This document shows, in pieces, positions 20,498-54,714 of a stretch of 64,000 bases of DNA. Below the pieces are notes generated by a model, which saw nothing but the letters and a program-made list of their open reading frames with translations, searched no databases and was not told where the DNA came from. A program made the translations under genes and the position numbers. The stretch is from Candidatus Spyradenecus sp. (GTDB taxonomy: Bacteria; Verrucomicrobiota; Kiritimatiellia; RFP12; DVOR01): positions 42,913 to 106,912 of the forward strand of contig JAZLBT010000015.1 of assembly GCA_045613865.1 (NCBI GenBank). Direction: 5' to 3'. Each line of letters begins with the position of its first letter. The first letter of the stretch is position 1.

Positions 20498-20574
20498 TGG
20501 TGGGCTGTGCTGGACTCGAACCAGCGACCCCTACCGTGTGAAGGTAGTGCTCTAACCAACTGAGCTAACAGCCC
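20498..20574 (-). tRNA. tRNA-Val (anticodon CAC)
   Basis: Reverse complement GGGCTGTTAGCTCAGTTGGTTAGAGCACTACCTTCACACGGTAGGGGTCGCTGGTTCGAGTCCAGCACAGCCCACCA folds as a 77-nt cloverleaf. The anticodon loop TTCACAC and T-loop TTCGAGT are readable, and CCA is encoded. Confidence 0.9.
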
Positions 20575-20578
20575 TAAA

Positions 20579-20652
20579 TGGAGCGGGCGAAGGGAATCGA
20601 ACCCTCGTAAGAAGCATGGGAAGCTCCTATTCTGCCATTGAATTACGCCCGC
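20579..20652 (-). tRNA. tRNA-Gly (anticodon CCC)
   Basis: Reverse complement GCGGGCGTAATTCAATGGCAGAATAGGAGCTTCCCATGCTTCTTACGAGGGTTCGATTCCCTTCGCCCGCTCCA folds as a 74-nt cloverleaf. Anticodon loop TTCCCAT; CCA is encoded. Confidence 0.9.
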
Positions 20653-20819: not shown

Positions 20820-20885
20820 CAAACAGGTGCTATTTAACGAACAAACAGCACCTATTTAACGGGCAAACAGCACCTGTTTGAGACA
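20820..20885. repeat. Three tandem 22-bp repeats of the CAAACAG family (CAAACAGGTGCTATTTAACGAA / CAAACAGCACCTATTTAACGGG / CAAACAGCACCTGTTTGAGACA)
   Basis: The period is exactly 22 bp. The GGTGC core is inverted to GCACC between units 1 and 2. Unit 3 forms the imperfect palindrome CAAACAGCACCTGTTTG. Confidence 0.8.
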
Positions 20886-20980
20886 CAAAGCAATACGGTT
20901 TCATTTAGAGAATAAAGCTCCCTTTTATAACGCATAGGGTTCACTCACTTAAAACATCTCTTCACATAGGGTGTAGAAAT

Positions 20981-21010
20981 TAAAAAGGCGGGTTTTCACC
21001 CGCCCTTTTG
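20981..21010 (-). terminator. Rho-independent terminator directly after the giant gene 1 stop
   Basis: On the minus strand: GGGCGGGU-GAAA-ACCCGCCU followed by UUUUUAAUUU. The hairpin starts 2 nt after the TAA stop. Confidence 0.75.
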
Positions 21011-21011
21011 A

Positions 21012-24000
21012 TTATTTCTTACGTTCAAGTTTTTTAACGTCTTCTTGCGACATCAAGACAACTTGGAAGTATTTACAATCCGTTGCGATATTGAGAATAC
21101 GTGGCGCGCCGCCAGAGGTATTCACATCCGAAGCGACATCCAACGTTTGGACAAAATACCATGCAGGATCAGAAAGTGTCTCCTTTCCAACAAGAACAAG
21201 TGTACCATCTGCATAGAGTTGCTTAATCTCTGTTGCACCATTCATAAGTGTAACCGATGCCTGAACACTCTTTTCTGCATTGTTTTCGATTATACCGAAA
21301 GCCGAGAAGCAGAGCGAGACATTGTCACCATTATCCGTAAGTGCGTCATCAAAGCCAAGCCAATACTTTTCTGACAAATCAATCGTACCACTGTTCATTG
21401 CTTGAGCAACGTCAGATGGTGTACCAGAGGCGATTAACCATGCTTCATAGCCAGCATCTTGAGGAGCAGAGTCCTTCAACTTTACAAGGATCTTTTGCGC
21501 TTCCTTATTCGGCACCAACATAACAACATAATTCTTGTCTGTATCAAGGAGCGCCGAATCATAAGAAGACGTCGATACCGAGCGTAAGCCAAGGCCATTA
21601 TCATCCTTTGACGGATCAAAGTCAATACAGTAGCGTCTTAACGTCATTGTCTTCTTTGTCGTGTTCAACGTTGTGACAAGATCCGTTGCGACCTTCACCT
21701 GACTAGAAGCAGCATTACTTAATGCTACATCAACATCAAACCACTCATCCGCAACCGGCTCAAGTGTCAAACGATAACGTGTATTCACTGGGAGATTTGC
21801 CACCGTAAACGACGAAGCTCGAGTCTTCAACGCCGTCAAAATGTCATTTCCTTCTGCATCTGTATAAACACGAGCAAGATCAAAGGTTGGCGTTGGCATC
21901 TTTGCTTCAAGCGCATTCAAGCCCAACGTTCCACCCATATAGCTTGCGCTAATTCGATACGTCCGCGAGATGAAGGCTATAAATTCATCCAACGACATCG
22001 AGGAATAAGGCTGCTTGAAATAATCGCCAGAGAAAGTCGCACTTGTATTATTATTGGGGCCAGGAATTGTAGAAACACCCGAACTTATTAAATAATCCAT
22101 GGGGTACCACACGCGCTGTTGATTTGCAATCGCCTCAAGACCAGATCCATTCTTCTTATAAACATCTACAAAGAGAATAGACGTATTACCCGCTAATCTA
22201 CCAATTGCGATGTTGACATAACGAATAATATTAGAAGAAGCAAAAGACTGCGTCTCAAGGGTTGCAATCTCCGACAAACGCGCATCAAGCGTCAACATCT
22301 CACCCAACGAATCAACTGCATTTTCGTTATTATGCGAGAAGAGAATCTCATCGGCAACAACACCATTATTACGCACGAGCTCAATACCAAAAACAAGTCC
22401 ATCCTTAGCATAATCTACGCCAAGTTCACTGTTAAGATACTTCACCAATGCGTCATAATTCGGGAAGATTTCCATCGTACCAATAGTAGCATCATCACCA
22501 AATTTCGTCTTTTTACCATTCTCTTCAGTCAACAATTCCACCGGGATTGTTGGCGTCTTCAAATAGACGAATTGATCAACATCCATTGCAGGGACAAGTG
22601 TACCCGTTCCCGAGCCATCGTCAACATATTCTCCCGATTGCTTAAGGCATGTAGCATAATCCAAACGCGACAACTCTGCCGTTAACGGATTATATGCTTC
22701 ATCAAACTTAAGATTCGTGATTTCATTATGACTTGTAGCAATTGCATAATAATCAATGCTATCTGCACTTGCATCCGTCGAAACAATACGCTTACCAGGA
22801 ATCCAAGACTTCAACTCAATCGTACGATTATAAAGCGGATGATCCATTGCAAGCATATCGGTCGAACGCGTCCAATTAAGTTTTGTTTTAGCATCCATTG
22901 TCGTTACATCTGGCATCGGTGCATACTTCACAACAATCTTCCAACCATCCAAGGATTGTGCCGGACGATAAAGTTTCTTAGATCCGAAATCAACTTCTGT
23001 AACCGTCGTTGCACGCATTGCAAGTTCAATCGCAGAACCATAACTATCTGTGTGGAAAGGACGAATTTCGTTAATCCAGACATCATTATAACCGATGGAA
23101 TAAATCCATGCATAAGGTGCCACGCCAGCCTTTTGACTCGTTGCCACATAGTTCACATCCGCACGATCTTCAGGAACATACCACGGGCAGTAAACAGGAA
23201 GATTGTCAGACGAGAAATTCGAAACGCCCTGGCAATCAATAATTTCACCCGTTGTTACATCCACGAGAACAACTGCGAAACGAAGAATGGCGCCTTCCGA
23301 CCACACACTTTCATTTTCAGCATTCTTCATCGATAACGTTGCCGTCAACGGAACAAGCGAGTCCTCATTCTGGATCATTGCCAACGCGCCATCATCGTCT
23401 GTTGTCGACGGATCACCCGCATTCAATGCCGCTGTAAGTTCGTCATTCGTCATCACTCGGAAGGCAAGATACGGTGCTTCCGAATCCTTCTTCAAGGCTT
23501 CAACCTCTTGTAATGTCAGCGAGGTCTTATTTTCGAAATCCTCTGTTTCAACTTGATCATCAATCGAACCGCGAATACCCTGAAGCGTCATCGGCAAAAT
23601 ACCACCCTTAACATAAGGCAAGCTCATCGACTTACCACTGTTAGCAAGTTGAAGATTGGTGCGCAACTTCTTGAAATCTGCCGTTACACCATCTCCAATT
23701 GCAGGCATTGCGCCAAACAACTTTGAAATATCCCAGTTTGCAAGGAAAGTTGTTGCACTTTGAGAAGCTGCCCCCGTAAAGAGATCGGAAGGCACTTTAT
23801 TTTTATCGGTCAATGCCCAAACAAGCATCGGAACAACCGTTGGCTTTTCAGAGGTCATCTCTTCAATAATGGTCTCACGAGCATACAAACCATTATCAGG
23901 GCGAATCACTGCCGACATCGACAAGGTATCACCAATCAACGGCTGATAAATCCAACCATGCTTATCACAATGTTCGCCTTCACCATTACCGATTTCATCA

Positions 24001-27000
24001 TCCCAAATAGGATTGGTTACAACCTCACCACCCTTTGTTAAGTCAGGAGCACCAGTGCTATCCAATCCATAGAAGCTCTGAGATACAAGCCATGCACCAA
24101 ATTCAATGCTACCAGGACGCATTGCCATAACAAGATTATTTGTTGCAGACGCCGGTTCTGCAATGAGAAGAACTGCAACCACATAATCATCTGTATCTTG
24201 GAAGAGCAATCCCGAGGTTTCATCAACCACCGCATCGCCATTAAAGATAATACGACCCGTAAAGGATTCTTCACCCGCGACCTCTGCAGTTGCAAAACCT
24301 CCGAGCTCAACATATATGCGAGCCTTTTCTGCATTTGACGTGGCAGTCTCTGCACGATAATAGGTTTCCCGTGCAAGCATCAACAAATCACCCTGCGAGA
24401 ATTCTTCACCCTTTGCAAGACGTTTGCCAACAAGAAGTACTTTACCCATCCATTCTGCAGGAAGCGTCAAGTAATCATAGGTATATCCCACGCGAGGACG
24501 ATAGGTAATCACACGCTGAATTTGATTCTTTGTGATATCAGAAACCCACGAATTCGCAGCAAACGATTCTTCTGCTGTAGCGCCAATAACTGTCGTTTCC
24601 GTTGGCACATAACCAAAGGCTTGCCAACCACAAGGCGATCCACCATAAACCGTATTCAACAATGTTGATGTCACACGAATGCGATTCCATTCGGGATTCG
24701 AATCAAGACCAACATCACCATTGGCGCCATTCTCTGTGCCGTTAGTTTCAGAGGCAACAAAACGCCACAAGGTTCGCTCTGCGCGGGTTTCACGCAAGAT
24801 GTCACCAAACTCATCGGTCGTTGTACCACCGACCAACTGAATCGAACCTGCTGTATTCAAGGCATCCGTTTGCCCCTCTACAATGTAGTGGCCAAGCGTA
24901 GTAGAAACATCGGTGGTAGCAGGAATACTACTTCCACCATTAGCTGTAACACCCGTCCAAACGCCACCCTCGCCTGCACCACACGGACGAATCAATGCAA
25001 CGGCAACAGCATCTTCATTTACATCAGTTGCCGTCTTAGCAACAAACTTGTAAGAGAAAGATGAAATCGCATCAAGCGCTTGAGCATCGCTCATATCCAC
25101 CCAGTCCATCGCTGTTCCACCTGGAACAGTATATTGGACCTTCCATCCATCTGTTGTAACTTCTGGTACACCTTCACCAAGACCTGCCCCAAGAATACCC
25201 TGACGCAACTTTGGAATAACCACTTCAACAAATGGCTCCGTTCCCGTACCTTTAACAAGGTTAACCTCATTCAACCACACCGATTCCGGAGGTGTGCTAT
25301 AGAGGTAGAAGTAAGGGATTTCTCCTTCTTGCTTTAATGGCGCATACCACTCTGGCCATGCATAACGAGGACTGGAAGTATCCTGAGGAATCAAATACTG
25401 AATTGTCTCTGTCGATGCACCCGATTGTACCGTAACGGCATAAACACCCCAGGCAAGATAGGGAATCTTTGGCTCCTTAATTATTATATTGCCATTAAGA
25501 TCCTTTTTCATATAGCTATCACCCAAGACCGTTACACACGTTGGGCTATAAATCTCACTTAAAGTGTCATTCACTTTACGCGTCAAGTCTAATACCGCAG
25601 AGCGCAAATAACCAGCGTCTCCCAACGCATTCATCTCGGCTTTAGCTTTGTCAAAGGTAAGACCCGTTAACGCAAGAATCTTATTCTTCCACTCCGTCCA
25701 CATTGTATCATCAAGATATGCAGTGGGATACGTGATAATCGCCCCAACAAGGCGTGCATTCTTTGCCGCTAATTCCGCGGTATTATATTTCACACTAAAT
25801 CCGAAGGCGCTACCACACCACGGTTGATACTTCGCATCACCCGTAAGCGCATCACCACAGAATGGCGAAACCTCCGTAATAATATCCTCTGCACCCTCTG
25901 CTGCAACAATATAATTTGCAGATAAGGTAAAGGAATACTTCGTTCCATCATTAAGCTCTGGAATCAATTGTAGGACAAGACGATCCACATTCTTTGGCTC
26001 AAAGGTTGCGACCATCGTGTTCGGTTGATTGACATCCGAAGCAAACGTTACACTAAACGAAGTCTCATCTTCAACGATTAAGTTTTTAAGCGCTTCTTCT
26101 GTTGCAACGGCCACACCATCTTCTGTACTTGTCGCAGTTAATGTAACCTTTTCAAGTTTATTAAACGGGAAGGCGGTATAGGTAACTTTAACCTTTGATC
26201 CATCAGGAATCGTACGATAAATCATATCACGACCACCAAAGATCGTTGTTGTACTAATCCCATTTTCATCAAGGAAGTCAACCATATGCTGACCAAGACC
26301 ATTAACTTGAGAAGAGATTGTATTACCATTTGGATCTGCATAGTAAATCAACCACTGATCAAGGTTAATTTGACGAGGTGTAACTTGAACCTCTTTATTC
26401 GTATCTCCTGGACGAGCCTGTTCTGTCAAATTGAGCGTTATATTAAACGGAGAGGCAAAAAGGTGGCTAACATCTAGCTGCCCCTTTTCCTCATTTTCCG
26501 TTCCAAGGGGTGTATTCGCATTGGTACGCATAACCCAAGCACCACCCATGTCGATCGTTGCAATCGAGTTTACGCGCTCCTTGCTTGAAGAACGAGCATC
26601 ACCAATAAAATTCTCTGTTGTGCCATTCTTGTCATAAATGCCATCGGCATTTGTCTTAAATGTCTTCACAACAGCGAGACGACGTGCATGATCTGCAGAT
26701 GTATAATTCGCATCGGGCTTATTCGTCGAGGAATCCCAATCTTCCTCACGGAAACTTTGGAACCATTCTGTACCGAAGCCTTCTTGTTTATAAGCAGTAC
26801 GATACTTTGTTGCTAATGCATCCAGACGAGACTCGGCATTGACAGATGATCCTTGACCATCTTGCCACAAGCTGTAAAGCACAATATGCTCTGCACCACC
26901 CGTTGGACGATAGAGGCGAAGCGCAACAGCAGCACTGTTCGTTCTTTCATAACCAGAATAAAGCCCCGTTTGTGCACGACCCGCATTTTTATGAGGTTCA

Positions 27001-30000
27001 CTCGTAACATTCTCATTATTTGCGAGAAGATTCGAATTCGCATTAATGATGGTATAAAATGTTCGATTCGAAAGCGGAGTTGCACCGCCCTGTGCAGGAA
27101 CTGCACCTGGATCAGGAACAAGCGGAGTCCCTTCATCTCTAATTGCAAAGGTCTCAACTGTAGAGAGTAAATTTGCATCGGAGATATCCGCGAACCAACC
27201 ATTCATGGAGTTCTTTGCCGGTGTACAGAATTCAATAAATCGTTTCATCAATGTTCTTGATGCATCGTTCATATTAAATTCATTAATAAAGACTTCTCCA
27301 GGAACGGTGTCATAAAGCCAAAAATAAGGCGTAAAGAAGCTTGAACCCTTTGTGTCAAAGGCGCCAACACCTGCATTTTCCGCATTTGAAGCAAGCTCAT
27401 TACAACGTGTACGCATTTCCGTATTAAGATTGCGCGGGAAATACCATGGGAAATCGGTATACGAGCCAGCATCAATAATCGAATATCCATAGCGTGGATT
27501 ATCCTCTGTACTATCCTCTGTTTCAAAAACCGCCCATACGGCATAACGCACAAGTCCATTTACTTTCAACTTCTTTATTTCATCAAACGCATCCGCATCA
27601 TCAGAGATTGTCCTAAAGGTTTGCTTTTCCGACGGCTCATCCTGACGCGTAAGCAAGATGGTATTTCCTTGCAAACTTGTCAAACTCTCAAGACCAGAAG
27701 CGGTTAACGCATCGTAATTTGCTTTATTCTCTGCTGCATCCAAACGCATGAAGGTGTCTTCAATTGCAGCACGCTTTGTTGCAAACCATGTTTCGAGCCC
27801 CCAAGCATCCAATGCTTGGGCAGCCTCTTCAAAGCTTGCCTTTGTGTCGCCAAGATTTTCAGTAATAGAAACATTCGATTCTATCGTAGGATCCCATGCA
27901 TAAATCGGTGTTGTTGCAGCTTCAACCGTTGTATCCAAAGCATTTCGGTAAGAATAATCCGAAGTAACACGTTTCATCTCCGTTGGAACATTCCACGTAA
28001 AGAAGACCTTAATTGAATCTTTCTTCACTTGCTGCAACCGATCCACTGTCACTTTTACCGCAAGAGGAGAACCCGCAAGTGGTTGAGAAAGCGGCGAATT
28101 ACGACCATCGGCAACGTCAAAAATACCACTGGCGCCATCCAACACTTTCGTATGCTTTTCAAAATTGTCTCCCGGAAGCGTTGAGAAACAAACATTACTC
28201 AAGCGTACAGAGGGAGCAATTGGTTCTGTGATAGAAAGTTTATCCAACCAAATGCGACCATACGCCTCAACTTGAGGTACACCATTACGACCATCAACAA
28301 CTCCACCCTCTACAGGAACATGAAGGCGAATGCGCTTCAAACTCTTATAATTCGGAATTATTTTAGTCAAATCAACATCATATTGACGATAAAGCGTATC
28401 CTCGATTTTTACACGTGTAAGATACGTATAATCATCTGGGAAGGACAATGATTCATGAGCATCAATGGTTTCACTCTCATAACCATAGACATAAACATAA
28501 TGATTTTCCAAAGAAGGCTCGTCAAGACGTGCAGCAAAACTAATAATCCCCGCACCCTTTTCCAAAATCGGAGACTCTACATAAGACTGAAGCAAAGGAT
28601 TTTCAATGCCACCAACAACATCCTCTGTGATGTGGTCATTAAAAAGTACGGCGCGCGTAAGACGACTCTTCCATGCGAACGTCTTTTCATTAATATTTTT
28701 CGCAAGACGATCCTTCCAATAAAGAGATGCTATTGGCTCTTCGCTTAATCGAATGTTACCTGCACTCCAAAGCGCCACCTCGCCAGAACTTGACGTAATA
28801 CGGAAATCATCAAGATAAACATAGGGGTCATCAGTACTATCAATCGGAGAAACCATGACGAGTCGAAGAATACCACGTTCCATCGAAACATATTTCGAAT
28901 TTTCTAATAGACGCGGTGTGATTGACATCGTTCGCCATTCACCATTGGTTATAGGAAGCTCAATTTCTGTCGAAACATTTTCCCAACTCGACAATGGATA
29001 AGAATCATTCAAATTATCAGTATGAGAGCTTCGGGCATTTGTGTATTGAAGCAACAAACTCACCGAAGGATTCTGTACATTGTCTTTAAATTCACTTTGT
29101 AAAGGAATACGATAACGGAAAGAAATCGTTCCAAAGTTATCGCTCGAATAAGGCGTATAAAGCGCCAATGTACTTGCTGTATGATGAATATTATTCGTCG
29201 ATCCTGCAGAAAGTCCGTTAGAAGTGTTACGTCGAGAATACTGCATCAAGAGACACTGCTCACCCGTGTATTCCGTTGGCTGCGCACTATTTTGCGATTC
29301 GTCTACTGGCTGTACCCAAACACCAACAGCAGAGAAACCATCCGTTTCCGACTCATTCCAATGTGTATTGGTATAAAGAGGAACTTTCGTTCCATTACGA
29401 TTCGTATCATCACCCTGCCACGAGCTAACCGTCAAATCATCAATGAAGACTTCGTTCCCATCTGTTGCCACAAGCGAGAGCGAAAGATCTGCTCGACCCA
29501 CCGTGATAGAATACTCTTGCTCTGTATCTCCCGCGGTAAACACGGCTAATTGCTCCGATTTGCCCTCCGAAGCAGAATATCCATCTAACCGAACCTGAGC
29601 AGAGGTGTCCGCGGGGCGTTTGCCACGTTGAAGTTGTAACTGTGAACCACTTGCGCTATTCACGACCCACTTCGCGTCTGACGTAAGAAGTTCCACTTTT
29701 GTTGTGTCTGGGGTATATGTTAAACCCTCAAATGCGCCATTGGTCGCATTCATATAAACAATAGAGTTAAAGATCGGCCAACATTCCGCCGAACCAAATG
29801 CAATATGCGTTAATGTTGTTTGGGGAACTGTACTCGTTGATTTAATTGTTTTATTCGCAAAGGATGCATTCAAGAAGCCCGCATCATCAATCCAAAGTCG
29901 CGCTTCTTTATTTTGCATCGAATCCTGATTCGTTACATGATAGTCCTTAGTGCCATTATCAACCTCGAACGACTTACGTGTAGCAACGCCCCCTGTCCAT

Positions 30001-33000
30001 TGCCATAACTCCATGACAACACGTTCTTGAGGACGTTCGCGACCATCTTGATAAATGAAAATCTGCGACAATCGTAATTCGTAATAAGTGGAAGTAAGTC
30101 CAACATTACAAAGATAAAGCGAAGTTGAATAACCAGACTTTGTTTTATCATTAATAGCAATTGTTGTACCAACACCCTTAAACGTCTTTGACGAATCACT
30201 GCAAAAAACAATACGGTCAATCGCATAGGGTTCCGAACGACTAAGCTTAAAACGAACCTCTCCTATACCCTTAAGAAGGGAAATATCACTACGAGCATCC
30301 GTAGACTGTTTAATGGTAGCATTACCAGACAATCGAACCATCGCATCGGGTTGATATCCCGATGGCGTCTCAATCATACTATTCGCGTCAAGTTTTAATA
30401 CAACCTGATTACCGTAAGAACTGCCAAATTCAAAGCCCTCGGTCCATGTTCTCGAATCATCTTCATCTTCACGCAAATACTTATGTGACGCAGGTTCACT
30501 CGAAGCACCCCAAGATGCAAAATAGTCTGCCGCAATGTTTGCAAGATCGCCAACAAAGAACTGATACGAAATACCAATATCCCCTGACGATTGCTTATTA
30601 TCACCATAAGCACGGCCAACCGTAAAATGATCCGTAATTTCAGAGGTTGTTGCAAGTGGACCTTGATCAGGAATCCAACCTCTTGAAATCTTTCCATCAC
30701 CCGAGATGATTGCATCAAAATTCGCGACCGCCGACTTTACATTCTCATGGAATTCTGTGTCAGCAAAGAGTCCATTTGACGCAGCATCCCATGTATTAAA
30801 ATCTTGTTCATTTGCACCACAAACAGAAAGTGTCCCAGCCTGCGTTGCAATATCTTCTGGCTCCTTAAAGGTGACACACAGATGTGTCGCACTGAGCTCG
30901 GAAATGTCAACCAAAATGGGAACGATCTCTTCAGGCGTTTTACCCGCTGTTAAGATTTCACCATTTGTTAACGAAATTGTACTTCCTGGATATGCAGGCA
31001 ATGTCGTTGGCATGCCACCTTGAACAACCGTTTCATTTTGACCATACCAATATTCATTGCCGTTCGGTTGACGAACACGAACTCGGAAGTTTACAAGATT
31101 TAAATGGTATTCCGCATCCCCGTCTGTCGCATCTGTAACCCAGGCATAAATCGCATCTGAATCCTTCTTTTCGGTATCCCCAGAATATATAATATTTCCC
31201 TCTGCAGAAACTGCAATTTCTTTAGGAAGCATCACATACCAAGAGCGAGATTCACGACCATCAGGAATGAAATTAACTTCTGCATCCTTCATCACATAGC
31301 CAAACGTTTCTCCTGCTCGCGTACGATATGTTAACACCATATCGATTTGCGTAGCATTCGTAAGTTGCTCTCGAACTTCAAGTGTTAAAGGATAGAAGCC
31401 CTTTGTTGAATCATTGTCATCTACTGGCAATTCCTTCACAAGAAGTGTTGTTTGCTCACGCTTATCCAAAACATCTCGGCCAGCCTCAAACGAACCAAGT
31501 AACTTACAATCTAATGTAAGATTATACACGCCTGGCAAAAGCGAAACTACATTGCCTTTTTCATCACGGCAAAAGGAGTTCTCTGCCACATTTGTAAATG
31601 CACCAAGACCATTTTTTGTAAGACGCTTAGAGTCTACGCCCATAAATGATGCAACAAGGGACTCACTATCAACCTCCATTGCCGCACTGTATGTTCCGCA
31701 AGCCTCATCACTGTCTGCTCGACGCGACAGCCCAAGAGATGCCTCATATCCTCGTGGCACCCGATTTACATTAGGGGTAACCTTAAAGTTAACCGTATAA
31801 CGTTCGCCCTCGTTCTTTTCTACATTATAGACATTACATGCTGCACCAATAAGATTTGCATCATTATCCTTAATTTGTGGTGCACCAATTGTTGCCATTG
31901 GTGTAGCTGATGAGACACGCAACTCTCGAATAAGAATCGTTGTCGCATACGCGTCATCAATCGTAACCTCGTTGCCAAATGATGTTACACGTAAAATACG
32001 GAATTGAGCCCCTGCATTCCCTGTAGCCTCTTCGTCCACCTTCACCGTAACAGATGTAAGACTTTGTGTTGGTGTAATAAGTGTTGCTGTAGGGTTACCT
32101 AAATCTTGCTTTACAAACGTACCATTTGCCCCTTTAACAGAAACACCTTCTGTCGTCCAAACACCTCCAACTTTCACCTGTACATAAAGATACTGTGGAG
32201 ATTCTGTTGCATCCGTAACAATCTTCGTCTTAAAGACAATCTTACTAATACCATCGGGGTAGGTTGGAGAGACAACCATCGGACAATCTTCAAACGTCTG
32301 TAAATTCTTGATGTTTTCAAGAGTCACGTCCACATCATTTAACAACAATGCACCCTCGTCTACGTAATTGCCTCCCGCAGAACCCAATGCAACTTTCTTT
32401 AATTCCCACGAAGTCCCAGAAATAGCCATGGAATCAAGCATATAAGCATTGTACTTCTCACGACCAAAATAAGAATCGCTCCAAACGTTATCTGTATTAT
32501 CATCACGATTAACCCCACGCCAAATACGCGGGTCTGTGAAATCCATCTTACGGCCATGGTCTTGAATATCAGAAACAATCGTGAAGAGGCCTAAACCGTA
32601 CCGCGATGCCGCATACCACTCATACGTTGCACGACCATTAATCAACGAATCCAAAAGCGGATTCATATTTTCAGGATTATTCCAATCAATCACAAGCACA
32701 TTACTATAAAAACGGCGTTCCCAACGCGCAGGATCGCGCACTGTTCCCACAGTCAAGGAGGTCAATGTGTCAGGAATCGAAGCGCCAGAAGAAACCACAT
32801 CTCGATTAATATCCCCCTGCTGAGGCATGGGATAATAACCCGAATCTTCTGCGGTTAAATAGATTGCACCAGACCACGCAGAGCCTTCGCCTCCATGCGG
32901 ACGATACATAAGGGTTGCAGGAATAGCTCGAAGTGTAGTCGCAATTCCCTTTGTTCCCGTACGAGGAACCGACACCGTTAAGCAAACCTGTGCGCTTGTT

Positions 33001-33182
33001 GAATTCTCCGTCAAAGGATCCTTTGTATCAGCATCAACAAGTGTTAATGCATAAAGCACCGGCTCTTCTTGAGAAACTCCAACAGGCACAGATGTTGTTG
33101 CCGAAAAAACAGGTTCGGCGGACCCGAAAATAAAGCCCGCCACAAGTGCTGAAAGCACGTTTGAAAAGGATAAGCGTTTCAT
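21012..33182 (-). CDS. Giant secreted protein 1 (4,056 aa from the ATG at 33182), probably a multi-domain beta-sandwich / jelly-roll surface protein or adhesin
   Basis: One uninterrupted ORF with a Sec signal peptide (MKRLSFSNVLSALVAGFIFGSAEPVFSA). It is Thr/Ser/Asn/Asp/Gly-rich and Cys-poor, with recurring (I/L)DD(F/L).(I/V) motifs (YVYLDDFRITS, EVFIDDLTVSS) of the kind that close ConA/LamG-like jelly rolls. The ORF track start at 33191 is a TTG; the ATG three codons later was preferred. Confidence 0.85.
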   Translation of the reverse strand: MKRLSFSNVLSALVAGFIFGSAEPVFSATTSVPVGVSQEEPVLYALTLVDADTKDPLTENSTSAQVCLTVSVPRTGTKGIATTLRAIPATLMYRPHGGEGSAWSGAIYLTAEDSGYYPMPQQGDINRDVVSSGASIPDTLTSLTVGTVRDPARWERRFYSNVLVIDWNNPENMNPLLDSLINGRATYEWYAASRYGLGLFTIVSDIQDHGRKMDFTDPRIWRGVNRDDNTDNVWSDSYFGREKYNAYMLDSMAISGTSWELKKVALGSAGGNYVDEGALLLNDVDVTLENIKNLQTFEDCPMVVSPTYPDGISKIVFKTKIVTDATESPQYLYVQVKVGGVWTTEGVSVKGANGTFVKQDLGNPTATLITPTQSLTSVTVKVDEEATGNAGAQFRILRVTSFGNEVTIDDAYATTILIRELRVSSATPMATIGAPQIKDNDANLIGAACNVYNVEKNEGERYTVNFKVTPNVNRVPRGYEASLGLSRRADSDEACGTYSAAMEVDSESLVASFMGVDSKRLTKNGLGAFTNVAENSFCRDEKGNVVSLLPGVYNLTLDCKLLGSFEAGRDVLDKREQTTLLVKELPVDDNDSTKGFYPLTLEVREQLTNATQIDMVLTYRTRAGETFGYVMKDAEVNFIPDGRESRSWYVMLPKEIAVSAEGNIIYSGDTEKKDSDAIYAWVTDATDGDAEYHLNLVNFRVRVRQPNGNEYWYGQNETVVQGGMPTTLPAYPGSTISLTNGEILTAGKTPEEIVPILVDISELSATHLCVTFKEPEDIATQAGTLSVCGANEQDFNTWDAASNGLFADTEFHENVKSAVANFDAIISGDGKISRGWIPDQGPLATTSEITDHFTVGRAYGDNKQSSGDIGISYQFFVGDLANIAADYFASWGASSEPASHKYLREDEDDSRTWTEGFEFGSSYGNQVVLKLDANSMIETPSGYQPDAMVRLSGNATIKQSTDARSDISLLKGIGEVRFKLSRSEPYAIDRIVFCSDSSKTFKGVGTTIAINDKTKSGYSTSLYLCNVGLTSTYYELRLSQIFIYQDGRERPQERVVMELWQWTGGVATRKSFEVDNGTKDYHVTNQDSMQNKEARLWIDDAGFLNASFANKTIKSTSTVPQTTLTHIAFGSAECWPIFNSIVYMNATNGAFEGLTYTPDTTKVELLTSDAKWVVNSASGSQLQLQRGKRPADTSAQVRLDGYSASEGKSEQLAVFTAGDTEQEYSITVGRADLSLSLVATDGNEVFIDDLTVSSWQGDDTNRNGTKVPLYTNTHWNESETDGFSAVGVWVQPVDESQNSAQPTEYTGEQCLLMQYSRRNTSNGLSAGSTNNIHHTASTLALYTPYSSDNFGTISFRYRIPLQSEFKDNVQNPSVSLLLQYTNARSSHTDNLNDSYPLSSWENVSTEIELPITNGEWRTMSITPRLLENSKYVSMERGILRLVMVSPIDSTDDPYVYLDDFRITSSSGEVALWSAGNIRLSEEPIASLYWKDRLAKNINEKTFAWKSRLTRAVLFNDHITEDVVGGIENPLLQSYVESPILEKGAGIISFAARLDEPSLENHYVYVYGYESETIDAHESLSFPDDYTYLTRVKIEDTLYRQYDVDLTKIIPNYKSLKRIRLHVPVEGGVVDGRNGVPQVEAYGRIWLDKLSITEPIAPSVRLSNVCFSTLPGDNFEKHTKVLDGASGIFDVADGRNSPLSQPLAGSPLAVKVTVDRLQQVKKDSIKVFFTWNVPTEMKRVTSDYSYRNALDTTVEAATTPIYAWDPTIESNVSITENLGDTKASFEEAAQALDAWGLETWFATKRAAIEDTFMRLDAAENKANYDALTASGLESLTSLQGNTILLTRQDEPSEKQTFRTISDDADAFDEIKKLKVNGLVRYAVWAVFETEDSTEDNPRYGYSIIDAGSYTDFPWYFPRNLNTEMRTRCNELASNAENAGVGAFDTKGSSFFTPYFWLYDTVPGEVFINEFNMNDASRTLMKRFIEFCTPAKNSMNGWFADISDANLLSTVETFAIRDEGTPLVPDPGAVPAQGGATPLSNRTFYTIINANSNLLANNENVTSEPHKNAGRAQTGLYSGYERTNSAAVALRLYRPTGGAEHIVLYSLWQDGQGSSVNAESRLDALATKYRTAYKQEGFGTEWFQSFREEDWDSSTNKPDANYTSADHARRLAVVKTFKTNADGIYDKNGTTENFIGDARSSSKERVNSIATIDMGGAWVMRTNANTPLGTENEEKGQLDVSHLFASPFNITLNLTEQARPGDTNKEVQVTPRQINLDQWLIYYADPNGNTISSQVNGLGQHMVDFLDENGISTTTIFGGRDMIYRTIPDGSKVKVTYTAFPFNKLEKVTLTATSTEDGVAVATEEALKNLIVEDETSFSVTFASDVNQPNTMVATFEPKNVDRLVLQLIPELNDGTKYSFTLSANYIVAAEGAEDIITEVSPFCGDALTGDAKYQPWCGSAFGFSVKYNTAELAAKNARLVGAIITYPTAYLDDTMWTEWKNKILALTGLTFDKAKAEMNALGDAGYLRSAVLDLTRKVNDTLSEIYSPTCVTVLGDSYMKKDLNGNIIIKEPKIPYLAWGVYAVTVQSGASTETIQYLIPQDTSSPRYAWPEWYAPLKQEGEIPYFYLYSTPPESVWLNEVNLVKGTGTEPFVEVVIPKLRQGILGAGLGEGVPEVTTDGWKVQYTVPGGTAMDWVDMSDAQALDAISSFSYKFVAKTATDVNEDAVAVALIRPCGAGEGGVWTGVTANGGSSIPATTDVSTTLGHYIVEGQTDALNTAGSIQLVGGTTTDEFGDILRETRAERTLWRFVASETNGTENGANGDVGLDSNPEWNRIRVTSTLLNTVYGGSPCGWQAFGYVPTETTVIGATAEESFAANSWVSDITKNQIQRVITYRPRVGYTYDYLTLPAEWMGKVLLVGKRLAKGEEFSQGDLLMLARETYYRAETATSNAEKARIYVELGGFATAEVAGEESFTGRIIFNGDAVVDETSGLLFQDTDDYVVAVLLIAEPASATNNLVMAMRPGSIEFGAWLVSQSFYGLDSTGAPDLTKGGEVVTNPIWDDEIGNGEGEHCDKHGWIYQPLIGDTLSMSAVIRPDNGLYARETIIEEMTSEKPTVVPMLVWALTDKNKVPSDLFTGAASQSATTFLANWDISKLFGAMPAIGDGVTADFKKLRTNLQLANSGKSMSLPYVKGGILPMTLQGIRGSIDDQVETEDFENKTSLTLQEVEALKKDSEAPYLAFRVMTNDELTAALNAGDPSTTDDDGALAMIQNEDSLVPLTATLSMKNAENESVWSEGAILRFAVVLVDVTTGEIIDCQGVSNFSSDNLPVYCPWYVPEDRADVNYVATSQKAGVAPYAWIYSIGYNDVWINEIRPFHTDSYGSAIELAMRATTVTEVDFGSKKLYRPAQSLDGWKIVVKYAPMPDVTTMDAKTKLNWTRSTDMLAMDHPLYNRTIELKSWIPGKRIVSTDASADSIDYYAIATSHNEITNLKFDEAYNPLTAELSRLDYATCLKQSGEYVDDGSGTGTLVPAMDVDQFVYLKTPTIPVELLTEENGKKTKFGDDATIGTMEIFPNYDALVKYLNSELGVDYAKDGLVFGIELVRNNGVVADEILFSHNNENAVDSLGEMLTLDARLSEIATLETQSFASSNIIRYVNIAIGRLAGNTSILFVDVYKKNGSGLEAIANQQRVWYPMDYLISSGVSTIPGPNNNTSATFSGDYFKQPYSSMSLDEFIAFISRTYRISASYMGGTLGLNALEAKMPTPTFDLARVYTDAEGNDILTALKTRASSFTVANLPVNTRYRLTLEPVADEWFDVDVALSNAASSQVKVATDLVTTLNTTKKTMTLRRYCIDFDPSKDDNGLGLRSVSTSSYDSALLDTDKNYVVMLVPNKEAQKILVKLKDSAPQDAGYEAWLIASGTPSDVAQAMNSGTIDLSEKYWLGFDDALTDNGDNVSLCFSAFGIIENNAEKSVQASVTLMNGATEIKQLYADGTLVLVGKETLSDPAWYFVQTLDVASDVNTSGGAPRILNIATDCKYFQVVLMSQEDVKKLERKK

Positions 33183-33183
33183 A

Positions 33184-34272
33184 TCAGTCAATCTTCTCCC
33201 CGTCTACATTGACGCCGCCAGAACCATACCACTTGGAAAGTTTCTTGCGTTTATTCATATCGGGTTTAGAGGAATCCGTTGATGGATCGTCAATTGCTTC
33301 AACACGTCCATCGCCAAAACAAACAAATGCTTGCATCTTGCCATCATTGTCATAATTGAAACCGAGACATTCGTCTTGGGCATCCCAATCCCAAACTTGG
33401 TCTCCTGCAAGAGGTTCTGTCTTCACCTTGTCATTATCCAAATCAAGCTCGACAAAGAGAACCGTTCGAGATGGCAATGCTTCAGCCGTTTCATTACCAC
33501 TTCCAGTTCGAGCCTTTAACGTATTCGCACCGTAATTGATAGAGGACGAAAAACCACGATTAAATTGCATCCCTGTACAATATTCCCGTTCTGTTCCGTA
33601 AAGATCTTCGTCTGCACCTGCAACAACATTCATTGCATACGAACGCATAACATGTTCTTCTCGACGAACATGACGTAAGCGGAATGCACGCTTCGCAAAG
33701 TTTTTATTCACATAGGAGGCGAAATCACTATTCATCAACTCGAAAAGTGCACCAACACGAATTGTATTCAATGCACCAGTCTTCATAGAACTTGTTGAAG
33801 ATTCGTCAAACCAAGTCGCGGGTTGCGCATTAATACCACCCTCTTTTTGAGAGGTATTAAAGCAACGGCAAAGACCTTCCTCATTGACGTAATCATCTGG
33901 ATTAGCATCATCCGACGAGCTAAAGCCATACCCATTACCACCGCCATCGCCAATTTCAAAAGAACATTCATGGCCAAAATAAACCCATCCTGCAGCACGG
34001 CCATAACGTTCTTCATAACCACTAGACTTCCGAAGGCGATACTCATTAAACCAACCACCCGCAGCAGGAAAATGACCATCATGGCGCATCTTGTAGAGAA
34101 GTGTAGATTGCCCCAAACGGCGTAAATCTTCACGCGCATCTGCAGACTCTGCAGAAGAAAATGCTTTACCAATAGTTGCTGTCAACGTTGCGCCAAGGAT
34201 GCCAATAATCATAATGACAACCAACAACTCAATCATTGTAAAACCGAGTGAAAAATTCTTTCGCGTCTTCAT
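33184..34272 (-). CDS. Prepilin-type N-terminal cleavage/methylation domain protein, DUF1559 (H-X9-DG-like) pseudopilin family
   Basis: MKTRKNFSLGFTMIELLVVIMIIGILGATL is a canonical type IV pilin / T2SS pseudopilin leader with the G|FTxxE methylation site. The C-terminal FVCFGDGRVEAIDD resembles the DUF1559 C-terminal box. Its stop TGA (33186-33184) lies 1 nt before the giant gene ATG (33182). Confidence 0.75.
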   Translation of the reverse strand: MKTRKNFSLGFTMIELLVVIMIIGILGATLTATIGKAFSSAESADAREDLRRLGQSTLLYKMRHDGHFPAAGGWFNEYRLRKSSGYEERYGRAAGWVYFGHECSFEIGDGGGNGYGFSSSDDANPDDYVNEEGLCRCFNTSQKEGGINAQPATWFDESSTSSMKTGALNTIRVGALFELMNSDFASYVNKNFAKRAFRLRHVRREEHVMRSYAMNVVAGADEDLYGTEREYCTGMQFNRGFSSSINYGANTLKARTGSGNETAEALPSRTVLFVELDLDNDKVKTEPLAGDQVWDWDAQDECLGFNYDNDGKMQAFVCFGDGRVEAIDDPSTDSSKPDMNKRKKLSKWYGSGGVNVDGEKID

Positions 34273-34486
34273 AAACGGTCCTCTCATACTTAACTATATT
34301 ATATGTCAAAAAACAGTCAAAAGCAACTGTTAATCAATGTGTCAAAAAAAATATTTCAAAAATGCGCTTAAAGTGCCTTTTTTATGCATCTTCTTTTTTA
34401 AAAAGATTTCTTAAATAAAAAATTAACTCTTTTTTTTCAATTTTCGCGTACTTTCTCCATCTTATCCCCCCTACTCTTCTTAACAA

Positions 34487-34534
34487 TACAAAACAAAAAA
34501 ATAAGAAGGCACCCAAGATGTTGGATGCCTTCTT
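34487..34534 (-). terminator. Rho-independent terminator after glgP (minus strand)
   Basis: 9-bp stem AAGAAGGCA / TGCCTTCTT followed on the minus strand by AUUUUUUUGUUUUGU. Confidence 0.55.
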
Positions 34535-34551
34535 GTTTGATTCAATATCCC

Positions 34552-37053
34552 TTACTTCGCAATAAAGGAATCAAGATGCCAAATATCCTTAGCATACTCA
34601 GCAATCGTACGGTCAGAGGAGAACTTACCTGCACATGCAGTATTCATCACAGAGGCCTTTGTCCATGCGGTCGGCTTACGATAGAGTGCTTCCACCTTGT
34701 CTTGAGCCTTAATAAAGGCAGGAAGGTCCTTGAGCAACATGTAGTAGTCATTGAAGTCAATGAGACTCTTCAAAAGCGGCTCAAAGATGCCAGGCGTCAT
34801 CAAGGAGAAGACGTTACGACGAATCATATCAAGAGCACGCTTAATCTCTGGATCAGACTCATAGATAGCACGAGAGTTATACGTCGGGCGGAGCTTCTCC
34901 ACTTCTTCCGTCTTAAGACCGAAGATGAAGATATTATCCTTACCCACTTCTTCTGCGATTTCAACATTTGCACCATCAAGCGTTCCGAGCGTAAGCGCAC
35001 CATTGAGCATAAGCTTCATGTTGCCTGTACCAGAGGCTTCTGTGCCCGCAAGCGAAATCTGTTCAGAAACGTTTGCAGCAGGAATAATCTTTTCTGCAAG
35101 AGAGACGCGATAATCTGGGAGGAATGCCACCGTAATGCGACCCTTAACAAGCGGGTGATTATTGACCACATCTGCAACGCCATGAATAAGACGAATAATA
35201 AGCTTCGCGATCCAATAACCAGGAGCAGCCTTTGCACCAAAGATAAAGACGCGAGGATGAATATCCATATCAGGCTTTTCAATCAAGCGATTAAAGAGAA
35301 CAATGATATAAAGCACGAGCAAGAGCTGACGCTTATATTCATGAAGACGCTTAACCTGAACGTCAAAGATTGCATCTGGGTTTGCCTGGAAACCAAGCGT
35401 ATTAAAGATTGTATTCGAAAGAATTTGCTTATTTGCACGCTTGATATCTGCGAACTCTTCCAAGAAAGAAGCGTCATTCACAAATTCCTTCAACTTAGAG
35501 AGTTCAGAGAGATCCGTAATCCACTTGTCGCCAATGCTATCTGTGATAAGATTTGCAAGACGGGGGTTAGCCTTAAGCAACCAACGACGTTGAGTAATAC
35601 CATTCGTCTTATTCGAGAAGTGATCCGGCATTAATTCAAAGAAGTCGCGGAAGATCGTCTTCTTCAAAATTTCAGAGTGGAGCGCGGCCACACCGTTAAC
35701 AGCGGAAGTACCCACAAGACAAAGATTTGCCATACGGACATACTTTTCGCCAGCTTCATCGATAAGCGACATACGACCAAGGCGTGCAATATCACCCGGA
35801 TAAAGATTTGTCACCTGCTGCAAGAAGCGTGCATTGATCTCATAAATGATTTGCATATGACGAGGAAGCACACGCTCCATCAACGGCACAGGCCACTTTT
35901 CAAGCGCTTCGGGAAGCACTGTGTGGTTTGTATAACCCGTGCAAGCACGAACATACTTCCACGCTTCATCCCAAGAAATGCCTTCAACGTCAACAAGAAC
36001 GCGCATCAACTCAGGAATAACAAGCGTTGGGTGCGTGTCATTTAACTGGATAAAGACATACTTCGGCAAGTGTTTCCAATCGTGACCTTCATCACGGAAA
36101 CGACGGAGGATATCATGCACCGATGCTGCAACAAAGAGATACTGCTGGCGGAGACGGAGTTCTTTACCCTGCGTGGTCGAATCATTTGGATAAAGAACCT
36201 TAGTCAAGTTTTCTGCAAGCACCTTCGATTCCACAGCTTCAATGTACGAACCGCGATTAAATTCTTCAAGAGAGAATTCATTTGTTGCATGTGCAGACCA
36301 AAGGCGAAGTGTACCAATGGTTGTACCCTTATAACCAACAACTGGCAAATCATACGGCACGGCTTGAACCTGCTGCGCAGGCACCCAAACCCATTCATCA
36401 TGACCCGTACGACCCTTGTAATGTTCAACATGACCACCAAAGCCAACAAGGCAGGTATATTCAGGACGTTGAATTTCCCAAGGATAACCATACTTCAACC
36501 AGTTATCCGGTTCTTCACGTTGTTCACCCTGAACGATACGCTGACGGAAGATACCATAGTCATAACGAAGACCATAACCCATTGCAGGGAGATTAAGCGT
36601 TGCGAGCGAATCAAGGAAGCAAGCGGCAAGACGACCAAGACCGCCATTACCAAGACCTGCGTCCATTTCGTAGTCGCGAAGACGATTCCAATCAAGACCA
36701 AGGGAATCCATTGCTTCACGGCACTGATCTTCAAGCCCCAAGTTGATCACATTATTGCCTAAGAGACGGCCAATAAGGAATTCGAGAGAAAGATAATAAA
36801 CACGACGAACTTTAGCGCTACGATAAGCGTCTTGTGTCGCCATCCAACGATCAACAATACGATCGCGAACAGCATAGGCAAGTGCATTATAACAATCGCG
36901 TTCAGTTGCACGATCATTGCTCTTTGCCATCGAAAAACGCATATTCCAAAGGAAGTCCTGTGCAAGACCCTTTGCGGTTAAATCAATGGAAGGATTTTCA
37001 GAGGGAAGTTTTACAGGCTGAATAGGTGCCGTTTTATTTTTTGATGTAGGCAT
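34552..37053 (-). CDS. glgP: Alpha-glucan (glycogen/maltodextrin) phosphorylase, GT35
   Basis: Family hallmarks YYLSLEFLIGRLLGNN, NGGLGRLAACFLDS, the PLP-site region TSAVNGVAALHSEILK and EASGTGNMK are present; the length is 833 aa. Confidence 0.9.
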   Translation of the reverse strand: MPTSKNKTAPIQPVKLPSENPSIDLTAKGLAQDFLWNMRFSMAKSNDRATERDCYNALAYAVRDRIVDRWMATQDAYRSAKVRRVYYLSLEFLIGRLLGNNVINLGLEDQCREAMDSLGLDWNRLRDYEMDAGLGNGGLGRLAACFLDSLATLNLPAMGYGLRYDYGIFRQRIVQGEQREEPDNWLKYGYPWEIQRPEYTCLVGFGGHVEHYKGRTGHDEWVWVPAQQVQAVPYDLPVVGYKGTTIGTLRLWSAHATNEFSLEEFNRGSYIEAVESKVLAENLTKVLYPNDSTTQGKELRLRQQYLFVAASVHDILRRFRDEGHDWKHLPKYVFIQLNDTHPTLVIPELMRVLVDVEGISWDEAWKYVRACTGYTNHTVLPEALEKWPVPLMERVLPRHMQIIYEINARFLQQVTNLYPGDIARLGRMSLIDEAGEKYVRMANLCLVGTSAVNGVAALHSEILKKTIFRDFFELMPDHFSNKTNGITQRRWLLKANPRLANLITDSIGDKWITDLSELSKLKEFVNDASFLEEFADIKRANKQILSNTIFNTLGFQANPDAIFDVQVKRLHEYKRQLLLVLYIIVLFNRLIEKPDMDIHPRVFIFGAKAAPGYWIAKLIIRLIHGVADVVNNHPLVKGRITVAFLPDYRVSLAEKIIPAANVSEQISLAGTEASGTGNMKLMLNGALTLGTLDGANVEIAEEVGKDNIFIFGLKTEEVEKLRPTYNSRAIYESDPEIKRALDMIRRNVFSLMTPGIFEPLLKSLIDFNDYYMLLKDLPAFIKAQDKVEALYRKPTAWTKASVMNTACAGKFSSDRTIAEYAKDIWHLDSFIAK

Positions 37054-39827: not shown

Positions 39828-40073
39828 GAAACATTCTCTCCTGATTTTAGGGCGCAATGCACCTTCGCATAATATTGCCCGCGTACCATTATAACAAAAA
39901 ATATCACACTCTTCTAAAAAAGTCAAGTATTTTAAAGAACTTTTATTTTTCCACCTCCTTTTCCTATGCAAAGCAAAAGCATCACATACGCTTAAACAAT
40001 TTCTTGACTTTGGGGATTCAAATCCTCTACAATAAGTGAAGTTCTAACAATTTAATCATTAAGGTCTACGATA

Positions 40074-54675: not shown

Positions 54676-54714
54676 ACCGTGTACCACTCCATTTCAAGGG
54701 GGTTTTTTATAAAA

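Follow-up and report, generated by a model that had tools for sequence, protein, structure and literature searches.

A pilin-like gene placed directly before a giant gene

Within the window, the whole 64,000-nt stretch of DNA that was analyzed, a small gene for a pilin-like protein runs directly into a gene for a secreted protein of more than 4,000 residues, referred to here as the giant, which raises the question of whether the two products act together and, if so, how. The preliminary description of this DNA had placed a single nucleotide between the two genes, in a TGAtATG junction, and reading of the sequence confirms it. The identical junction is present in the closest relative (L103), which is 79% identical. 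That description had also bracketed the pair with an AT-rich promoter region and a strong terminator, and both were recovered (Table 1). The GC content falls to 27.9% at 34273-34480 (27.9-29.4% for the region) compared with 44% in both genes, and a promoter-like sigma-70 site, TTGACT-16-TATAGT, is located at 34320-34293 with 10 of 12 matches. Upstream of the pair lies glgP, whose own terminator-like site is at 34534-34503. The hairpin that follows the giant has a folding energy of -19.5 kcal/mol (z = -5.97), a value reached by none of 200 shuffles, and was also returned by the terminator scan. Another hairpin followed by a U-run, at 33142-33116 in the region coding for the giant's signal peptide, was considered as an attenuator and rejected because it is no better than its shuffles (z = -1.3). 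An Rfam scan of the window returned two tRNAs and nothing else.

Table 1. Features of the pilin-like/giant locus, in window coordinates
Feature	Position	Strand	Description
Pilin-like gene	33184..34272	minus	362 aa; mature protein ~39 kDa; class III (prepilin) signal peptide
Giant gene	21012..33182	minus	4,056 aa; mature protein 442 kDa; pI 4.6; orphan family
Junction TGA-t-ATG	33180..33186	minus	Pilin-like stop codon, one T, giant start codon
AT-rich upstream intergenic region	34273..34551	minus	Promoter-like site, SD-like GAGAGGA, upstream terminator
Intrinsic terminator	20977..21009	minus	Hairpin GGGCGGGUGAAAACCCGCC and U-run directly 3' of the giant stop codon
Best conserved third of the giant, aa 1215-2345	26148..29540	minus	String of beta jelly-roll domains in the structure model
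Conserved C-terminal module of the giant, ~aa 3990-4045	21048..21215	minus	From family alignments

The pilin-like protein is a remote relative of DUF1559/HX9DG proteins

The product of the small gene begins MKTRKNFSLG followed by FTMIELLVV, with the cleavage site after the glycine and a glutamate at +5. The prepilin-type leader claimed for it earlier is upheld by the signal criteria and by two models, PF07963 (N_methyl, the only Pfam family matched; 24.4 bits, cut-off 21.2; E = 2e-5) and TIGR02532 (22.8 bits against 16.3). Translation most probably starts at the ATG at 34272. An in-frame ATG farther upstream, at 34287, is the less likely start because the SD-like GAGAGGA precedes the former by 6-7 nt and the leaders of homologues are ~9 residues long. 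Residues E15, L16, V18 and V19 are invariant in an alignment of 45 relatives, and the processing signature (G-1, F+1, E+5) varies little or not at all throughout the family. Hydropathy analysis shows one strongly hydrophobic segment, residues 5-38. The structure model, which has a high-confidence fold, consists of a long N-terminal helix (residues 13-63) and a 300-aa globular head in which H101, C103, C135 and C137 are conserved. The best structural matches of the protein are pilins; a Foldseek search of the model against the PDB gave zero matches.

The protein had been labeled DUF1559-like. Direct membership is unsupported: neither PF07596 (DUF1559, SBP_bac_10) nor TIGR04294 (H-X9-DG) matched it at E ≤ 0.1, and the curated thresholds, including that of Pfam, were not reached. 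Among the 45 relatives there are weak matches to PF07596 in 7 (best E = 3e-4) and to TIGR04294 in 29 (best E = 1.8e-3). Homology to the superfamily does hold at the profile level. When the family alignment was compared with seven PF07596-annotated proteins, hhalign gave a probability of 99.9% (E = 3e-31) over 224 columns; this alignment is nearly full length, with the motifs NNL..LG.A...Y, YAMN and F.DGHV(E), and reaches beyond the shared helix. These profile comparisons place the pilin-like family in the DUF1559/HX9DG superfamily, as a divergent branch whose remote relationship is recognizable at the profile level only. Both share the N-terminal prepilin signal. However, the protein in the window lacks the His of the H-X9-DG motif, and its family adds a Cys-rich insertion of ~80 aa and a conserved SKWYGSGG C terminus. 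In PVC bacteria, few families have expanded as much as the DUF1559/HX9DG prepilin-type proteins or are as poorly understood, and a full-text search returned their name in only four papers.

The giant belongs to an orphan family of predicted glycan-binding proteins

The giant had been called secreted, and it does start with a Sec-type signal peptide, MKRLSFSNVLSALVAGFIFGSAEPVFSA (residues 1-28), with no prepilin motif. Apart from this peptide and one borderline stretch, the hydropathy scan showed no transmembrane segment. The protein is non-repetitive by self-BLAST. Its homologues are collinear over the 12-kb open frame at 23-49% identity, and the family alignment contains more than 200 invariant columns, with a conservation profile that is flat along the whole length. 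The family is small: there were 22 matches among 1.84 billion representatives, amounting to ~20 clusters at 50% identity, with no relatives elsewhere. Pfam and NCBIfam families matched neither the giant nor 12 of its relatives, and a PDB sequence search with the family profile gave no match. A 901-aa piece searched against a word-indexed protein database returned one fragment only; this database apparently lacks giants. The family defined here thus comprises orphan secreted proteins of ~4,000 residues from gut and rumen Kiritimatiellae.

In the modeled third of the giant (Table 1), the jelly rolls are of the carbohydrate-binding module (CBM), lectin or galactose-binding-like type. This resemblance is one of fold, with no Pfam CBM family found in the sequence of the giant or the 12 relatives. 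The model suggests that the giant may be a glycan-binding protein, and such proteins could have a part in attachment to mucin or plant glycans in a phylum that reportedly depends on T2SS and has no TonB-type uptake (PMC5148204). Three "vWINEi...FvEl" stretches resemble lamin-tail domains by eye; this reading was rejected, as it has no Pfam support in the giant or the 12 relatives.

The two genes are inherited as a unit

In all 13 independent lineages for which DNA downstream of the pilin-like orthologue was available, a homologue collinear with the giant comes directly after that orthologue, at gaps of 1, 1, 2, 2, 2, 2, 3, 4, 6, 7, 11, 38 and 45 nt. The genes that flank the pair differ in every lineage. 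Metagenome-assembled genomes with the pair include GCA_031553315.1, GCA_964478335.1, GCA_965339495.1 and RGIG9925. In addition, the pairwise divergences of the pilin-like and giant proteins correlate (r = 0.93). The pairing is beyond chance. The comparison, which the preliminary description had set as a check beforehand, shows the pair to be a self-contained, predicted two-gene operon of gut and rumen Kiritimatiellae that is inherited as a unit. That the adjacency is accidental or the open reading frames miscalled has a negligible probability; all that speaks for it is the mechanical origin of the ORF lists, and it is refuted by the long open frame with its collinear homologues, by the high-confidence fold of the small protein and by the recurrent synteny.

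The pilin-like gene could also have been one of many scattered paralogues. By sequence clustering, it is instead a member of a discrete orthogroup of ~70 clusters (90% identity clustering) with 35-79% identity, and it is this orthogroup that is tied to the giant. A pilin-like paralogue of 27% identity (P0073) is followed by rpoD and has no giant. When contigs were scanned with the entire pilin-like alignment, generic ELLVV helix matches dominated and one true orthologue (L011) was recovered; the remaining loci served as a background set. Of the 81 prepilin-like ORFs of generic type at these other loci, most of them from PVC bacteria, none is followed by an ORF of at least 1,000 aa. Thus, the link to a giant is specific to this orthogroup, and the link suggested for DUF1559 proteins at large does not hold. 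The obligate giant neighbor sets the family apart from typical DUF1559/H-X9-DG members, and a fixed genetic partner for one sub-branch of this superfamily turns its function into a testable two-protein hypothesis.

Operon membership by itself is no proof of contact, and the two proteins might merely be coregulated, expressed from one promoter and active in one process, for instance in attaching to a glycan substrate, with no mutual binding. The C-terminal module described below, which also occurs on a giant that has no pilin-like partner, is compatible with this. We nevertheless find it quite unlikely because the adjacency kept in 13 of 13 lineages while all flanks changed, the gaps of mostly 1-11 nt and the strictly matching, narrow distribution of the two families exceed what loose coregulation would lead one to expect. 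The 13/13 pairing suggests rather that the small protein is a dedicated handle for the export or display of the giant.

A conserved C-terminal module is shared with a second giant

The C-terminal module of the giant has the consensus GDGxLVLLGKxSLxDxxW ... TDCxFF(K/R)AVLLS, beyond which there is a short tail of variable sequence. A second giant encoded in the window ends with the same module (hhalign, 95.6%, E = 1.3e-8); it is unrelated, in that comparison of the two giants revealed no global similarity, and has no pilin-like neighbor. No homologues of the second giant were found near the pair in other lineages. A search with the module profile against the word-indexed database, from which giants are apparently missing, gave nothing at E ≤ 1. 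From its sequence conservation, the module is a candidate docking or sorting element. Since a giant without a pilin-like neighbor carries it, it may be a general sorting tag and not a site for docking to the pilin-like protein.

The pilin-like protein as a putative adaptor to a type IV filament

Our preferred, though tentative, reading, to which we assign a probability of roughly 45%, is that the pilin-like protein serves as a dedicated adaptor, which would couple the giant to a type IV filament (T2SS/T4P) machinery, by analogy with PilY1/PilC and the minor pilins. The near-zero gap would provide coupled, roughly equimolar synthesis of the two proteins. Prepilin peptidase would process the pilin-like protein, which would remain in the inner membrane, its head projecting into the periplasm. 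The head would bind the giant, most plausibly via the C-terminal module, as the PilC/PilY1 "plug" binds the minor pilin PilK. The pilin-like protein would then join a type IV filament (pilus or T2SS endopilus), at its tip or close to it, and the growing filament would take the giant through the secretin for surface display or release and for binding to glycans or particles. If true, the principle by which a pilin carries a large non-pilin partner would apply to a cargo four times the size of PilY1 as well.

Several lines of evidence point to the adaptor reading: the 13/13 synteny (gaps, 1-45 nt) amid unrelated flanks, the correlated divergence, the orthogroup specificity (P0073 and the 81 generic ORFs) and the matching family sizes (~70 pilin-like clusters at 90% and ~20 giant clusters at 50% identity). 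It is also consistent with the Sec signal peptide, lack of transmembrane segments and acidic pI of the giant, with the CBM/lectin-type folds in its modeled third and with the pair's own promoter region and terminator. There is, moreover, a precedent in a large SPI-exported non-pilin adhesin, the C terminus of which attaches to a minor pilin through beta-strand augmentation (bioRxiv 10.64898/2026.09.18.752573), and the phylum's type species is reported to have a T2SS (PMC5148204).

Other observations weigh against it. At none of the loci do T2SS, T4P or prepilin peptidase genes occur within 10 kb of the pair. Classical tip complexes contain four minor pilins, compared with one pilin-like gene here, and the C-terminal module is also carried by the second giant, which has no pilin-like neighbor. 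A folded 442-kDa protein is, to our knowledge, far larger than any known secretin cargo.

The lack of adjoining filament genes, the single pilin-like gene and the great size of the giant for passage through a secretin would also suit a protein that never enters a filament, its helix serving as an anchor in the inner membrane and its head retaining the giant within the periplasm or envelope, as in a scaffold that spans the envelope or captures glycans. The one strongly hydrophobic segment and the large head, atypical for subunits of a filament body, are in keeping with such a role. However, the family retains the full prepilin processing signature. In type IV pilins E+5 makes subunit-subunit contacts in the filament, so a simple anchor would not need it. 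The predicted CBM-like modules of the giant, for their part, would fit an extracellular role better. We therefore consider anchoring alone unlikely.

Tight coupling and coevolution are also typical of chaperone-client pairs, and Acinetobacter is reported to have membrane-associated chaperones that each serve a single T2SS substrate (PMC4713064). The head could be such a dedicated folding or targeting chaperone, a periplasmic pilot, in which case the pilin-like protein would not be coexported and the giant would leave by another route or be released through lysis or in vesicles. This is improbable: no chaperone-like family or fold was detected for the pilin-like protein, its best structural matches being pilins, and a chaperone would leave the conserved E+5 and processing site unexplained.

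A further-reaching version of the adaptor reading, which we regard as doubtful, is that a DUF1559/HX9DG branch evolved, independently of PilY1/PilC, into a dedicated adaptor that plugs a 442-kDa multi-lectin giant onto a type IV filament via the C-terminal module. Because a second, unrelated giant of the same genome carries the module, the latter would be a portable "pilin-docking tag," with several giant cargos sharing filament machinery in Kiritimatiellae.

Comparison with known systems

The closest parallel is with PilY1/PilC and the type IVa minor pilins, in which the gene of a large non-pilin protein, exported by an ordinary Sec signal peptide, likewise lies beside one or more genes for prepilin-type proteins; here, one pilin-like gene lies directly upstream of such an SPI-exported protein. 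In Neisseria, the last 12 residues of this large protein dock on the minor pilin PilK by beta-strand augmentation (bioRxiv 10.64898/2026.09.18.752573). The present pair differs in that the giant is ~four times larger than PilY1, a single DUF1559/HX9DG-type pilin-like gene takes the place of four, and the pair stands outside any pilus gene cluster. For a PilY1-type C-terminal beta-propeller, there was no Pfam or NCBIfam match in the giant or its 12 relatives and no PDB sequence match, the C-terminal third being judged from its sequence alone. The pilin-like protein is also distinct from GspK, the large T2SS tip pseudopilin, which lacks the Glu+5 that is invariant here; no GspK models were among its matches, which were N-terminal and limited to GspG, H, I and J.

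In type IVb pili, TcpB-TcpF of Vibrio cholerae and CofB-CofJ of ETEC, a Sec-exported soluble protein needs a tip minor pilin for its release or display. The resemblance to the proposed partnership lies in this general description. Unlike the giant, their cargos are small (~35 kDa) and encoded inside complete pilus operons.

The giants of Omnitrophota are likewise very long, with predicted adhesion and CBM-like domains, and are associated with type II/IV filament components and small genes with class III signal peptides; their genes adjoin T2SS-like loci (bioRxiv 10.1101/2023.11.21.568195). They contain many transmembrane regions and divergent SecA DEAD-like domains and are encoded after a secretion locus that comprises more than 10 genes (bioRxiv 10.1101/2023.11.21.568195). 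The giant in the window, in contrast, has a signal peptide only, one pilin-like neighbor and no Pfam match, and does not fall into this class.

A PVC-specific parallel is the Verru_Chthon cassette (NCBIfam TIGR02596-TIGR02600), which combines several prepilin-type proteins and one large protein. The giant matched none of the NCBIfam models, those of this cassette included; for the pilin-like protein, the models of cassette proteins C and D gave N-terminal matches, all below threshold (E = 0.035-0.18).

Conserved pairing of a prepilin-type gene with a giant gene

The pilin-like and giant genes meet at a junction in which the TGA of the former, a single T, and the ATG of the latter follow one another directly. 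The intergenic region 5′ of the pair has a GC content of 28%, compared with 44% in genes, contains a promoter-like site (TTGACT-16-TATAGT) and a Shine-Dalgarno-like GAGAGGA, and is preceded by the glycogen phosphorylase gene glgP with its terminator. Immediately 3′ of the giant stop codon lies a hairpin followed by a U-run (−19.5 kcal/mol, z = −6). Rereading of the ORFs, junction, promoter region, and terminator confirmed all coordinates assigned to the pair and its flanks in the preliminary description. A second hairpin with a T-run, located within the giant gene where the signal peptide is encoded, was considered as a read-through attenuator and rejected, as it scored no better than shuffled sequence (z = −1.3).

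The genomic context of pilin-like orthologues was gathered by exact look-ups and a metagenome scan, which, after removal of duplicates, yielded 13 independent lineages: the window and loci L001, L004, L006, L008, L009, L011, L094, L096, L098, L099, L101, and L103. In all 13 lineages with downstream DNA, a collinear giant homologue lies 1 to 45 nt 3′ of the pilin-like stop codon on the same strand, such that the gene pair first proposed from the window alone is conserved in relatives. The gap is 11 nt or less in 11 of these lineages, and the TGAtATG junction is identical in a 79%-identical relative (L103). The two genes form a conserved operon, and translation of the prepilin-type protein is probably coupled to that of the Sec-exported giant. 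The neighbors differ in every lineage and include ribosomal protein genes, argJ, gyrB, lptF/G, fab genes, and genes for a glycosyltransferase and a tRNA synthetase, as well as lpoB, with glgP in the window; the pair seems to relocate as one unit. At L103, smpB, tatA, and lpoB are found 5′ of the pair, compared with glgP in the window. No transposase or integrase was seen beside the pair at L001–L011, L094–L103, or in the window. For the pilin-like protein and the giant, pairwise identities correlate with r = 0.93 over 66 pairs (two duplicate pairs included), a value that reflects common descent plus any coevolution. That the two proteins are merely coregulated appears quite improbable.

Features of the window discussed in the text
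Feature	Position	Strand	Remarks
Terminator-like hairpin	20443-20418	−	own hairpin of the tRNA genes
tRNA-Gly(CCC), tRNA-Val(CAC)	20498-20652	−	360 nt 3′ of the giant's terminator
Inverted repeat	20820-20880		flanked by the terminator of the giant and the tRNA genes
Giant gene	21012-33182	−	4,056 codons; N-terminal Sec-type signal peptide MKRLSFSNVLSALVAGFIFGSAEPVFSA
Rejected attenuator hairpin	33116-33142	−	
Pilin-like gene	33184-34272	−	362 aa; begins MKTRKNFSLG/FTMIELLVVIMIIGILGA
Cys/His residues of the insertion	about 33862-33972	−	residues 101-137 of the pilin-like protein
glgP	34552-37053		
rpoD-type gene	37458-39971	−	837 aa; long N-terminal extension; 3 kb 5′ of the pair
Giant 2	40687-54687	−	about 4,660 aa; signal peptide; Laminin_G_3 match; 6.4 kb 5′ of the pair
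C-terminal module of giant 2	about 40690-40830	−	GKETLSDEW...KFFKVVL
ORF preceding giant 2	54715-55371	−	218 aa; lipoprotein-like, Ala/Lys/Glu-rich; lipobox-like ILQGC; no pilin

The pairing is specific to one orthogroup

The window contains only one prepilin-like ORF. Elsewhere, 81 generic prepilin-like ORFs from 78 other loci, mostly of Planctomycetota and Verrucomicrobiota, are followed by no ORF above 526 aa, and the 27%-identical paralogue P0073 is followed by rpoD rather than a giant gene. The giant association thus belongs to this pilin-like orthogroup and not to DUF1559 proteins at large; the general link raised in the preliminary description found no support among the 81 ORFs. P0073 lies directly 5′ of its rpoD-type sigma factor gene (L090, 3176-6325), and an rpoD-type gene also occurs near the window pair, which may be coincidence. 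Full-text literature searches found nothing on the pilin-like/giant pairing. For a very large family without assigned function, the pairing offers a concrete starting point on one of its branches.

The pilin-like protein is a divergent DUF1559 relative

The only Pfam match of the pilin-like protein was PF07963, the N-terminal methylation motif, which scored above threshold, and DUF1559 (PF07596) was not matched; NCBIfam gave N-terminal matches only, to GspG, GspH, and PilV-type models. Full-length relatives form ~70 clusters (35-79% identity, 329-411 aa), the few named ones being from Kiritimatiellae/Kiritimatiellia MAGs. Profile–profile comparison of the family with seven PF07596-annotated proteins gave 99.9% probability (E 3e-31) over nearly the full length, and among 45 relatives, weak matches were found to PF07596 in 7 and to the H-X9-DG model in 29. 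These profile comparisons place the family in the DUF1559/HX9DG superfamily as a divergent branch, one that scores below the curated thresholds for membership. The earlier label "DUF1559-like" therefore holds only remotely, at the profile level, though not as a PF07596 match of the window protein itself.

In the family alignment the prepilin signature (G−1, F+1, E+5) is invariant, and further motifs are YAMN, GDQVWDWD, F.DG.VE, and a C-terminal SKWYGSGG. The E+5 excludes membership in GspK. The alignment also contains an insertion with H101, C103, C135, and C137, all invariant or nearly so. This conservation, together with weak matches of 13 of 45 relatives to the zinc-finger model zf-UBP_var, may point to a disulfide knot or a metal site in this part of the head, an insertion that canonical DUF1559 proteins do not have.

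The giant defines an orphan family

No Pfam or NCBIfam family was found for the window giant or 12 relatives, and its family profile matched no PDB sequence. When residues 1200-2399 were searched exhaustively with HMMER against 1.84 billion representatives, only 22 proteins were retrieved; the 20 below E 1e-30 are all homologous giants of 3,100-4,100 aa or their fragments. The giant defines a new orphan family of secreted giants in gut Kiritimatiellae. The window giant is nonrepetitive, and conservation is even over its length: an alignment of 19 sequences has >200 invariant columns. The acidic mature protein (pI 4.6) has a mass of 442 kDa, and there is no transmembrane segment besides the signal peptide; the transmembrane regions and SecA-like domain of Omnitrophota giants are absent. 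At least the modeled third (residues 1215-2345, predicted β jelly rolls) looks, at the level of fold only, like a chain of lectin/CBM-type modules. The family also shares a conserved C-terminal module, GDGxLVLLGKxSLxDxxW...TDCxFF(K/R)AVLLS.

A possible adaptor for surface passage or display

The operon joins a prepilin-type gene to the gene for a Sec-exported giant that has lectin-like folds. We infer that it resembles systems in which a minor pilin has a large nonpilin partner: the pilin-like protein would be a dedicated adaptor linking the giant to a type IV filament machinery, and this machinery would then bring the giant to the cell surface or display it there. The nearest precedent for such an adaptor is PilY1/PilC with minor pilins; the 110-kDa PilC of Neisseria docks on the minor pilin PilK through its final 12 residues, by β-strand augmentation (bioRxiv 10.64898/2026.09.18.752573). 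However, the giant matches no propeller domain, and there is one pilin-like gene in the pair compared with four pilin genes in that system. For the phylum's type species, a T2SS and a lack of TonB-dependent uptake have been reported (PMC5148204). No filament genes lie within 10 kb of the pair. That the pilin-like protein is instead a simple inner-membrane anchor for the giant seems unlikely, and a role as a dedicated periplasmic chaperone is a slightly weaker prospect, on a par with mere coregulation.

By analogy to the end of PilC, the giant's C-terminal module is a candidate docking element for the proposed adaptor. It could equally be a general sorting tag because giant 2, which is overall unrelated to the first giant, ends in the same ~50-aa module (hhalign 95.6%, E 1.3e-8), yet is preceded by a lipoprotein-like ORF and not a pilin.

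Beyond the giant's terminator, an inverted repeat, CAAACAGGTGCT ... AGCACCTGTTTG, was seen by eye. Inside it, GGTGCTGTTTG(c/t)(c/t)CGTTAAATA occurs twice in direct orientation, and the repeat may act as an operator or form a small structured element.
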